In this document: piece after piece, positions 476 through 1,119 of the stretch
How the letters are laid out: every line of letters begins with the position of its first letter
Position numbering within the stretch: the first letter of the stretch is position 1
Assembly: GCF_003334785.1 (NCBI RefSeq)
Contig: NZ_QOWV01000049.1
Length of the DNA: 4,124 bases
Strand: one strand, 5' to 3'
Source: Escherichia coli
GTDB lineage: Bacteria > Pseudomonadota > Gammaproteobacteria > Enterobacterales > Enterobacteriaceae
Translations under genes and position numbers: made by a program
Notes under the pieces: generated by a model
Told to the model about the DNA's origin: nothing
The model's input: only the letters and a program-made list of their open reading frames with translations
Database searches by the model: none

Positions 476-485
476 TTACTGTCCC

Positions 486-515
486 CGCCCCCGGCACTAA
501 ACCCGGGGGTATTTT
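486..515 (+). terminator. Rho-independent terminator after the OMP fragment
   Basis: 7-bp all-GC stem CCCCCGG (488-494) / CCGGGGG (503-509), 8-nt loop CACTAAAC, followed by TATTTT (510-515), 11 nt after the TGA stop. Confidence 0.5.
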
Positions 516-534
516 CATATTCAGTTTAAATAAC

Positions 535-1119
535 ATGATGAAACCACGTTCTTCTTATTCAAAAACAGCATTCATTCTTTTATTTTCTGTTTTCCTAGTA
601 GCGGCAGTGACAAAAGCAAAAAGCTCGCTTCCCGATATCACCCTGGAACAGGCAAAAGAAATTAATGCTGATAACACCGTTATTTTCCTTTTCCGCCATG
701 GAGAACGTTGCGACCGTTCAGATATGCCCTGCTATTCGGATAAGAGCGGAATCACTATTACCGGTACAGAGAAAGCACAGCAGGAAGGTATTAAGTTCGC
801 AACAATCTTCAGTGAATATGATATTTACTCCAGCAATGCAGTAAGAACCATACAAACTGCAAAATTCTTCTCCGGTAAAGAACCCGTCGTTATGGACAGT
901 TTATCAGACTGCAATAATGATCTTTATAAGACGCTTGAATCAATCGCAAGAGAATCTCATAAAAGGAACATAGTAATAATGACACATAATCATTGTTTAT
1001 CATTTCTGGCCAGAGATAGGCTCGGCAAGAAATTCAAACCGGCGTACCTTGATGCCCTGATCATGCATTACGATGGCACCCGGCTCATACTTGACGGAAA
1101 ATACAACAAAGAGGCATAG
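535..1119 (+). CDS. ais: Ais/PmrG-like periplasmic histidine phosphatase (histidine phosphatase superfamily; LPS core heptose(II)-phosphate phosphatase family)
   Basis: 194-aa ORF, ATG 535 to TAG 1117-1119. N-terminal signal peptide (MMKPRSSYSK + hydrophobic TAFILLFSVFLVAAV + TKA). Catalytic motif LFRHGERCDRS shortly after the signal peptide and a second His motif IVIMTHNHC. Blocks RHxERCDRS, GIT..GT, YSSN.VRTIQ, THNHC and FKP.YLD match my recollection of E. coli Ais at roughly 50% identity, so this is a divergent orthologue or paralogue. No clear SD; the ATG lies 20 bp after the terminator T-tract. Confidence 0.8.
   Translation: MMKPRSSYSKTAFILLFSVFLVAAVTKAKSSLPDITLEQAKEINADNTVIFLFRHGERCDRSDMPCYSDKSGITITGTEKAQQEGIKFATIFSEYDIYSSNAVRTIQTAKFFSGKEPVVMDSLSDCNNDLYKTLESIARESHKRNIVIMTHNHCLSFLARDRLGKKFKPAYLDALIMHYDGTRLILDGKYNKEA

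Follow-up and report, generated by a model that had tools for sequence, protein, structure and literature searches.

Is a phosphatase gene of the Ais/PmrG type, lying apart from any arn gene and only a short distance beyond a terminator-like hairpin, a stray copy of a lipopolysaccharide (LPS)-modifying gene, or does it belong to a larger genetic unit? The question arises from a stretch of 4,124 nucleotides of Escherichia coli DNA (contig NZ_QOWV01000049.1 of assembly GCF_003334785.1), referred to here as the window. An earlier note on this DNA had flagged positions 476-1119 as a divergent gene of this type with an unusual expression context. The flagged feature comprises an intergenic spacer (476-534) and, 3' to it, an open reading frame on the plus strand (535-1119) which starts with ATGATG and encodes a histidine phosphatase of the Ais/PmrG family of 194 amino acids. 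The overall explanation that we favour, and consider probable though well short of assured, is that the gene is traG of the IncI1 plasmids, that its product would be a periplasmic LPS inner-core phosphatase, that it would be transcribed by read-through and that this particular copy is perhaps weakly expressed or silent.

The IncI1 gene located between traF and traH is the traG of the R64 nomenclature. The product of the window gene is identical at all 194 residues to the protein encoded at this position in L002, an intact IncI1 locus extending from pilS to traH (WP_000977522.1, "histidine phosphatase family protein"), and the two genes differ at three nucleotides, all synonymous. Existing annotations of the gene read either LPS core heptose(II)-phosphate phosphatase or histidine phosphatase family protein; GenBank record LC567090 labels it traG, and in plasmid pESBL it is named TraG and annotated as a heptose(II)-phosphate phosphatase (PMC4288162). 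A translated search of PLSDB with TraG matched 1441 plasmids from Escherichia, Salmonella, Shigella and Klebsiella, 1240 of them at 99% identity or more. The match spans at least 80% of the protein in 1392 cases, and 1383 of the 1441 plasmids are typed conjugative. Among 5426 complete E. coli genomes, 755 contain the traF-traG-traH segment. A "variant" at 86% (P0005) looks like an IncI1 assembly full of homopolymer errors, in which traF is uncalled, and was ignored. Since the identical protein occurs in more than 1000 plasmids and had already been annotated, the flagged gene is, judged by its sequence, the ordinary, catalogued traG of IncI1, a backbone gene already known, as opposed to a stray copy of ais. 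The earlier suggestion of an extra copy distinct from that of the canonical locus holds in the sense that traG is a plasmid-borne ais/pmrG paralogue, 43% identical to Ais of E. coli K-12.

The window itself is a patchwork of IncI1 backbone bounded by insertion sequences. Its first 137 bases (1-137, minus strand) are one end of an IS66-family element of the ISEc47/ISEc43-like type and match the ends of multicopy elements at 98-100%. The annotated genes of the element (transposase, tnpB and IS66-like transposase) are all minus-strand genes that point away from traG, the first transposase gene being read leftwards. Similarity to intact traF starts at about 133; the gene is truncated by the IS66-family insertion and its 3' third (133-475, plus strand), coding for part of an outer-membrane beta-barrel (Pfam TraF_2, PF13729), is colinear with L002 and ends in ...AQLQFTF-stop; its annotation reads "conjugal transfer protein TraF". 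Colinearity of the window with the IncI1 traF-traG-traH segment, at 99.6% identity, runs from about 133 to 1630. As the earlier note had stated, there is no arnB-like neighbour: arn genes are absent and traG is adjoined by the fragments of traF and traH.

On the 3' side of traG lies a structured non-coding stretch (1120-1335, plus strand; folding z = -4.2, with none of 200 shuffles folding as well) with a terminator-like hairpin at 1299-1318. It is 84-86% identical to its counterpart in L005, a divergent locus of the same type, compared with 76% for traG, and is probably the 3' end of traG and/or a regulatory region of the traH operon. A 49-codon open reading frame on the minus strand here (1133-1282) was discarded as a gene, its reading frame being lost in L005. 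Further downstream, the first 117 nt of traH (1514-1630, plus strand), which encodes a DotD-type lipoprotein, are joined, out of frame, to 1141 nt from the 3' end of traY (1631-2771, plus strand), encoding a DotA/TraY membrane protein. The joint at 1630/1631 falls between GGTTA and ACGCTTG, and all genes from traI through traX are deleted there. These are followed by a full-length IncI1 entry-exclusion gene, excA (2847-3461, plus strand, 204 amino acids), a truncated hha-like gene and the end of an IS3-family element (4049-4124, minus strand). Colinearity with L003, an IncI1 locus covering traB to pilL and traY to trbB, stops at about 4048, and 4061-4100 lies within an IS3-family element of that locus. 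The sole Rfam match, to mir-219 at 2776-2848, scores 24 bits where the gathering score is 54.5 and is a sub-threshold, chance match. The arrangement IS66-traF'-traG-traH'::traY' occurs in none of the 5426 complete E. coli genomes and nowhere in PLSDB, and the exact traH::traY joint is absent from a collection holding one genome per species.

This state of decay bears on whether the copy is used. Because the IS66-family insertion took traE and most of traF, the IS genes face away and traH is fused to traY, the window copy of traG has lost the promoter on which it would normally rely together with its partners in conjugation; it may be transcriptionally orphaned, and hence weakly expressed or silent. 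A more radical reading, in which traG is a silent passenger relic, intact only through recent decay and with no role in its present host, is a serious possibility, although we would not put it at even. The replacement of traE and two thirds of traF by an element whose genes point elsewhere speaks for it, as do the loss of the type IV secretion genes traI through traX, the IS3-family end on the right, and the fact that no sigma-70-like promoter was found on the plus strand between 1 and 534 or, more narrowly, between traF and traG. Weak or hybrid promoters may nevertheless exist, and the reading frame encodes a protein 100% identical to the functional allele, the three differences from L002 being synonymous. 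Moreover, traG-like genes persist outside tra regions in two other loci, L011, where the copy is still accompanied by a traF remnant and hairpin, and L007, which suggests that the gene can be useful on its own.

What kind of enzyme does traG encode? The description as an Ais/PmrG-like phosphatase is well founded. TraG is 43% identical to K-12 Ais (b2252) over 164 amino acids (E = 2e-51) and scores 295.1 bits against the NCBIfam model of the Ais subfamily, NF011945 (cut-off 142), its residues 1-192 aligning with positions 4-200 of the 201 in the profile; K-12 Ais, used as a control, scores 391.9 bits. The PmrG equivalog model NF052369 proved uninformative as a discriminator because K-12 Ais (145.8 bits) fails the 170-bit cut-off as TraG does (123.7 bits), so that the two are not separated by it. 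The match of TraG to Pfam His_Phos_1 (PF00300) is weak (i-E 3.5e-4), and a sequence search of the PDB gave no match at E ≤1, for which reason a predicted structure was needed to assign the fold. Searched against the PDB with Foldseek, the AlphaFold2 model (pLDDT 91.5, pTM 0.82) matches RosC, phosphoserine phosphatase, PGAM5 and SixA with a probability of 1.00. The catalytic motifs are R54-H55-G56 and T150-H151-N152-H153. In an alignment of 16 homologues R54, H55, R58, C59, D60, C66, Q107, C126, T150, H151, H153 and C154 are invariant, among them four cysteines, and R104 is nearly so. From family knowledge, and not from a solved complex, we take R58, R104, H151 and H153 to be residues of the phosphate pocket. 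The model shows TraG with the predicted fold of a histidine phosphatase and an intact catalytic set.

By inspection, the N-terminus resembles a signal peptide over about residues 1-28, with basic K3, R5 and K10, a hydrophobic segment at 12-25 and then TKA/K; AlphaFold2 places a helix of low pLDDT at 7-30. Together with the four invariant cysteines, this N-terminus fits an exported periplasmic enzyme like Ais. We propose that TraG would be exported by means of its putative signal peptide, work in the periplasm and dephosphorylate an envelope sugar there. The likeliest substrate, if TraG behaves as PmrG does, is a heptose phosphate in the inner core of the donor LPS; for PmrG itself, the evidence of activity is genetic and mass-spectrometric. 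PmrG acts on the heptose II phosphate of the LPS inner core, as cited in PMC8129183. Homology to PmrG at about 40% identity makes LPS the most likely substrate of TraG; a search of the literature found no biochemical or genetic test of this substrate and no demonstrated function of traG.

A periplasmic phosphatase with a substrate other than LPS, such as another envelope glycan, undecaprenyl-linked intermediates or phosphate compounds to be scavenged, is possible but rather unlikely in our view; the Ais-type name would then be misleading. Identity to Ais of only about 40% and the position of TraG in a clade of its own are compatible with a different substrate, the superfamily is catalytically versatile, with fold matches ranging from SixA to RosC, and the NCBI pipeline now names TraG simply "histidine phosphatase family protein". 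Against this stand the full-length match to the Ais subfamily model, far above its cut-off, and the four cysteines and active-site motifs that TraG has in common with Ais. The neighbouring products also relate to the cell surface, namely the PilV adhesin system and outer-membrane TraF, and PilV binds the LPS core (PMC10654706). An LPS inner-core substrate is the reading we retain.

In an identity matrix and a neighbour-joining tree, TraG variants (87, 73 and 53-60% identity) form their own clade. At 33-43% identity, it stands apart both from chromosomal Ais (of E. coli and of Citrobacter) and from other paralogue clades of enterobacteria, of which there are at least four; TraG is 37-43% identical to all relatives that are not TraG. 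Set against Ais and PmrG, TraG is thus a separate, plasmid-borne clade. With dN/dS among TraG variants at 0.14-0.17, these sequence comparisons show the protein to evolve under purifying selection.

How old is the association with traF and traH? The traF-traG-traH synteny is kept in L005, whose TraF is of the TraF_2 type (PF13729) and whose TraG is 73% identical. It extends to L019, a deeply diverged I-type locus with saturated synonymous sites and a GC content of 52-62%, where the order is traE, traF, hairpin, about 22 nt, ATG, phosphatase gene, traH, traI, traJ and traK. The L019 phosphatase is 40-43% identical to TraG, compared with 86% for TraF and 65% for TraH. In IncK plasmid pCT, the order is traE, traF, hairpin, traH, and traG is missing; it is missing too in the IncI2 plasmid pHNSHP45. 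The absence from pCT might be taken to mean that traG is a low-GC cassette newly inserted into IncI1, an idea that we dropped since the L019 slot holds a phosphatase of 40% identity. The presence of a phosphatase in the same slot of so diverged a locus implies that the slot, traE-traF-hairpin-traG-traH, is old, and its loss in pCT is, most simply, a better account of the distribution than independent gain.

The GC content of traG, 40.5% against 49.9% for the traF fragment, is indeed below that of the flanking outer-membrane protein gene, as had been remarked. In each of three diverged lineages, however, every other gene of the traE-H module exceeds the phosphatase gene in GC (41 vs 44-51%, 37 vs 43-51% and 52 vs 55-62%), and a dip that stands in three lineages is no mark of recent acquisition. 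The idea that the gene was horizontally acquired is therefore sound as far as its plasmid location goes, but draws no support for a recent event from base composition. traG is the fastest-diverging gene of the module, and its L005 copy was swapped by recombination between near-identical flanks, dS being 1.05 for this gene as against 0.02-0.03 for traE and traF.

We now turn to the hairpin on which the impression of an unusual expression context had been based. Located just 3' of the traF stop codon, it is GC-rich and followed by a short T-rich tail (487-520, plus strand); the stem (487-494/503-510) has 8 pairs, 7 of them G-C, with a dG of -16.9 kcal/mol, and none of 200 shuffles folds as well. 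The stem is followed by AUUUUCAUAU, and the ATG of traG lies 24 nt beyond it, which agrees with the earlier description of a terminator-like hairpin shortly before the start. A T>C change at 516 leaves a run of four T in the window, compared with five in reference IncI1. The same hairpin follows traF in the main IncI1 lineage, in L005, L011 and L019, and in pCT, which has no traG; a U tract accompanies it only in the main IncI1 lineage, and L005, L019 and pCT have the bare stem. Because the hairpin is maintained after traF even in the absence of traG and the U tract is limited to one lineage, the hairpin belongs, as we read the comparison, to traF, as a 3' element that may be terminator-like, an attenuator or an mRNA end. 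A hairpin, then about 20-27 nt, then a start codon is a succession common to several diverged lineages.

The notion of an unusual context consequently does not survive the comparison: the hairpin-spacer-start order recurs across these lineages and, as described below, the protein is made and is induced together with Tra and Pil proteins. For this plasmid family the expression context of traG is normal. In wider terms, traG belongs to the regular backbone of a family that is among the commonest of resistance plasmids, and within that family its odd-looking context is the rule. The lack of a recognisable Shine-Dalgarno sequence is real, none of GGAG, GAGG and AGGA occurring in the 20 nt before the ATG (TTCAGTTTAAATAAC), and traG would have to be translated without a canonical one, from an A/U-rich leader.

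Evidence that the gene is expressed in its usual setting comes from published data. In proteomics of pTF2 in E. coli MG1655, the "histidine phosphatase family protein" whose gene lies between those for TraH and TraF is identified with high confidence, and its abundance ratio under cefotaxime is 3.56, next to 1.95 for TraE, 2.86 for TraF, 3.20 for TraH, 3.26 for TraI, 4.06 for PilV and 4.38 for PilS (PMC12211044, Table S2). In a TnSeq analysis of pESBL on solid medium TraG was given probabilities of 0.79 for non-essential, 0.21 for maintenance and 0.00 for transfer, and TraE, TraF and TraG were all unneeded for transfer under this condition (PMC4288162). IncK pCT and IncI2 pHNSHP45 conjugate without traG, so its function is accessory at best. 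TraG is made together with Tra and Pil proteins, is under purifying selection, is dispensable by TnSeq and is missing in IncK and IncI2; this makes it a part of the transfer regulon that is co-regulated, under selection and accessory.

How, then, would transcripts reach traG? The only sigma-70-like site upstream of it in the IncI1 locus precedes traE. We propose that traG has no promoter of its own and that polymerase coming from traE, or from further upstream, would read through the traF-distal hairpin, possibly aided by the plasmid NusG-family protein TraB and/or host RfaH. A NusG-family traB gene is present in the regulatory regions of IncI1 and IncK. Induction of traF by cefotaxime depends on rfaH, and an ops element is stated for the tra promoter region of pTF2 (PMC6768964); on the relevant strand, no ops element (GGCGGTAGnnTG) was found in L002 (pilS to traH) or in L003 (traB to pilL, traY to trbB). 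With no ops in these two IncI1 loci, what is left to carry the antitermination idea is the NusG-family traB and the published dependence on rfaH.

In the main IncI1 lineage, hairpin and U tract could end most transcripts, and an undetected non-consensus promoter would then be required. This is the premise of another explanation, that the hairpin terminates transcription efficiently as an intrinsic terminator and that traG is a unit of its own, whose promoter, non-consensus and perhaps dependent on TraB/TraC, would overlap the hairpin or lie within the 24-nt spacer. The stable stem with its 4-5 U in that lineage would suit such an arrangement, as would the number of terminator-like sites in the region (6 vs 1.5 expected). 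We nevertheless judge it unlikely: L005, L019 and pCT keep the stem without the U tract, a standard promoter would not fit into the spacer, where no consensus match occurs, and the induction ratio of TraG tracks those of TraE and TraF. Read-through from traE or beyond remains the account that we prefer.

Control of traG by PmrA/BasR, the regulator whose direct repeat the earlier note had correctly reported missing upstream, can be set aside. Even with up to two mismatches, no YTTAAK-N5-YTTAAK repeat occurs between 157 and 2202, an interval that includes the 300 nt upstream of traG; in the whole window there are 6 matches where 7.9 are expected by chance, and in the intact IncI1 locus the sole match with at most one mismatch lies inside traE, at chance level. 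Neither the window nor the intact locus thus has a repeat near the gene beyond chance.

The same note had gone on to propose a role in polymyxin and cationic-peptide resistance. As a PmrA-independent, acquired LPS phosphatase TraG would exert its main effect on this resistance of the host, and it is indeed a mobile, extra ais/pmrG paralogue devoid of a PmrA box. We regard such a role as most improbable and found no support for it: traG is embedded in, and co-regulated with, genes for conjugation, a PmrA-constitutive E. coli remained resistant to polymyxin B after its chromosomal pmrG had been deleted (PMC8129183), and our literature search found no link between IncI1 carriage and polymyxin MIC.

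Could TraG act instead on the surface that the transfer apparatus recognises? Downstream of pilV and its shufflon the gene order is rci, traE, traF, traG, so that traG comes fourth. The LPS core structures bound by PilV adhesins are defined, and one of them carries a heptose 4-phosphate; for the IncI2 plasmid TP114 one PilV receptor, Hep-alpha(1-3)-Hep-4-phosphate, depends on the WaaP phosphate but not on that of WaaY, and PilV homologues of R64 are reported to have the same receptors as those of TP114 (PMC10654706). Since traG lies near pilV, is co-induced with PilV and PilS and diverges fast, and since PilV binds the LPS core, an editing of the donor surface is worth considering: TraG might strip a heptose phosphate from the donor LPS inner core and so alter recognition by PilV or the transfer machinery, as a pilus-level self-exclusion or a tuning of mating. 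We offer this as a long shot. If it were true, the deeply diverged alleles of the traG slot would represent adaptation to different host core types. The interest that remains in the gene lies in its being intact in more than 1000 plasmids and made with the transfer apparatus, and in its membership of a family whose enzymes take phosphate off the LPS core; that core is also what the thin-pilus adhesins of IncI plasmids recognise.

Several known systems can be compared with the gene analysed here. The most distant are members of branch 1 of the histidine phosphatases (SixA, PGAM5, phosphoserine phosphatase and RosC), which have the fold and the catalytic Arg-His...His core in common with TraG. 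Sequence identity to them is only 9-20%, and TraG differs by its putative export signal and by cysteines consistent with periplasmic disulfides. Closer are other Ais-like paralogues of Enterobacteriaceae, borne on plasmids or islands (the P0020, P0033, P0039 and P0041 clades), all of which pass NF011945 and lie on mobile or virulence-plasmid DNA. These adjoin AraC-type regulators, a SPATE autotransporter or integrases, whereas TraG adjoins conjugation genes, and their identity to TraG is 35-53%.

Ais (b2252) and its Salmonella counterpart PmrG resemble TraG in matching NF011945, in length and in what looks like an N-terminal export segment, and also in the RH(G/A)ERCDRS and THNHC motifs and the four conserved cysteines. 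In contrast to them, TraG, which is 39-43% identical and forms a separate clade, is plasmid-borne within a conjugation module, while K-12 ais is divergent from arnB; it also lacks a PmrA box and is co-induced with transfer proteins. Finally, for TraG of the IncI1 plasmids R64, ColIb-P9, pESBL and pTF2, the protein sequence, the placement between traF and traH, the hairpin on the upstream side and the spacer on the downstream side all coincide with those of the gene in the window. The window gene itself shows no difference from these; only its surroundings differ, as those of a deleted, IS-bounded remnant.

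Comparison of L005 3832-7509, a lineage carrying a different traG allele, with the intact IncI1 reference locus L002 indicates that this region is a mosaic. Synonymous divergence (dS) is 0.02-0.03 in traE and traF, 0.15 in traH and 1.05 in traG, whose product is 73% identical in amino acid sequence to its L002 counterpart. The high traG value beside the low values of traE, traF and traH therefore shows that recombination, with almost identical sequence on either side, replaced traG by an old allele.

Downstream of traG, the non-coding stretch at window positions 1120-1335 shows 84-86% identity between IncI1 and the L005 lineage, a higher conservation than that of traG itself (76%). 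It includes the palindrome GGCACATGTGCC and a terminator-like hairpin at 1299-1318, and its predicted fold is far more stable than those of shuffled sequences (z = -4.2; 0/200). A counterpart is missing both from pCT, an IncK plasmid without traG, and from the relocated traG copy of L011. Since transfer is not blocked by transposon insertions in traE-G, the traH operon must be served by a promoter of its own, and positions 1120-1335 may be the regulatory region of this operon.

On the other side of traG, window position 516 is C where reference IncI1 has T, which shortens the T run 3' of the traF-distal hairpin from five to four and would weaken any terminator activity of that hairpin. The same hairpin bears on the start of the phosphatase gene in the deeply diverged I-type locus L019. 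As called (3580-4209, MNMPPAPGG...), the ORF extends across the hairpin as far as the stop codon of traF, which it overlaps. Translation more likely begins at 3631 (MRILKNRF..., as in P0044), which gives a hairpin-to-ATG spacing equal to that of IncI1.

The traH::traY deletion joint lies at 1630/1631 (region 1625-1640; compared with L001 7494-7498). A group of IncI1-derived plasmids, 45-72 kb in size and including the blaCMY-42 carrier p2-Ec-BERN-042 of E. coli 042, also shows a direct traH-traY fusion. The traH-side breakpoint, after GCGGTTA, is at the same nucleotide in both, whereas the traY-side endpoint differs, with 1141 nt of traY kept in the window and 1758 nt in the plasmids. This combination reflects either a recurrent traH breakpoint or nested deletions. 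The deletion also creates an out-of-frame TraH' peptide of 51 aa (1514-1669) and a 409-aa ORF (1542-2771) which starts at a TTG within traH and runs into the 3' part of traY; both are probably meaningless by-products.

Despite deletion of the whole secretion apparatus, the window keeps a full-length entry-exclusion ORF, excA (2847-3461; 204 aa). Its product differs slightly from ExcA of pUMNF18, with three nucleotide differences across the gene, and the remnant could still keep other IncI1 plasmids from entering the cell. In the hha-like gene (3559-3768), TGG>TAG at 3751-3753 costs the product its last five residues, whereas in pUMNF18 the reading frame already stops at codon 8; inactivating or truncating changes have arisen independently in this one small gene. 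Further right, a small conserved hypothetical gene (3977-4087; 177 nt in pUMNF18, MNLVDAFVKKVISGPY...) is broken by the IS3-family end at ~4049.

Other Ais-like paralogues are found in virulence-plasmid-like DNA. Those at L007 732-1307 and L020 3357-3941 adjoin AraC-family regulators and CaiF/GrlA, that at L009 8001-8582 adjoins a SPATE autotransporter and an EAL protein, and that at L011 6001-6585 adjoins type II secretion genes. Little studied as they are, these paralogues represent a sizeable group of mobile LPS-phosphatase-like genes.
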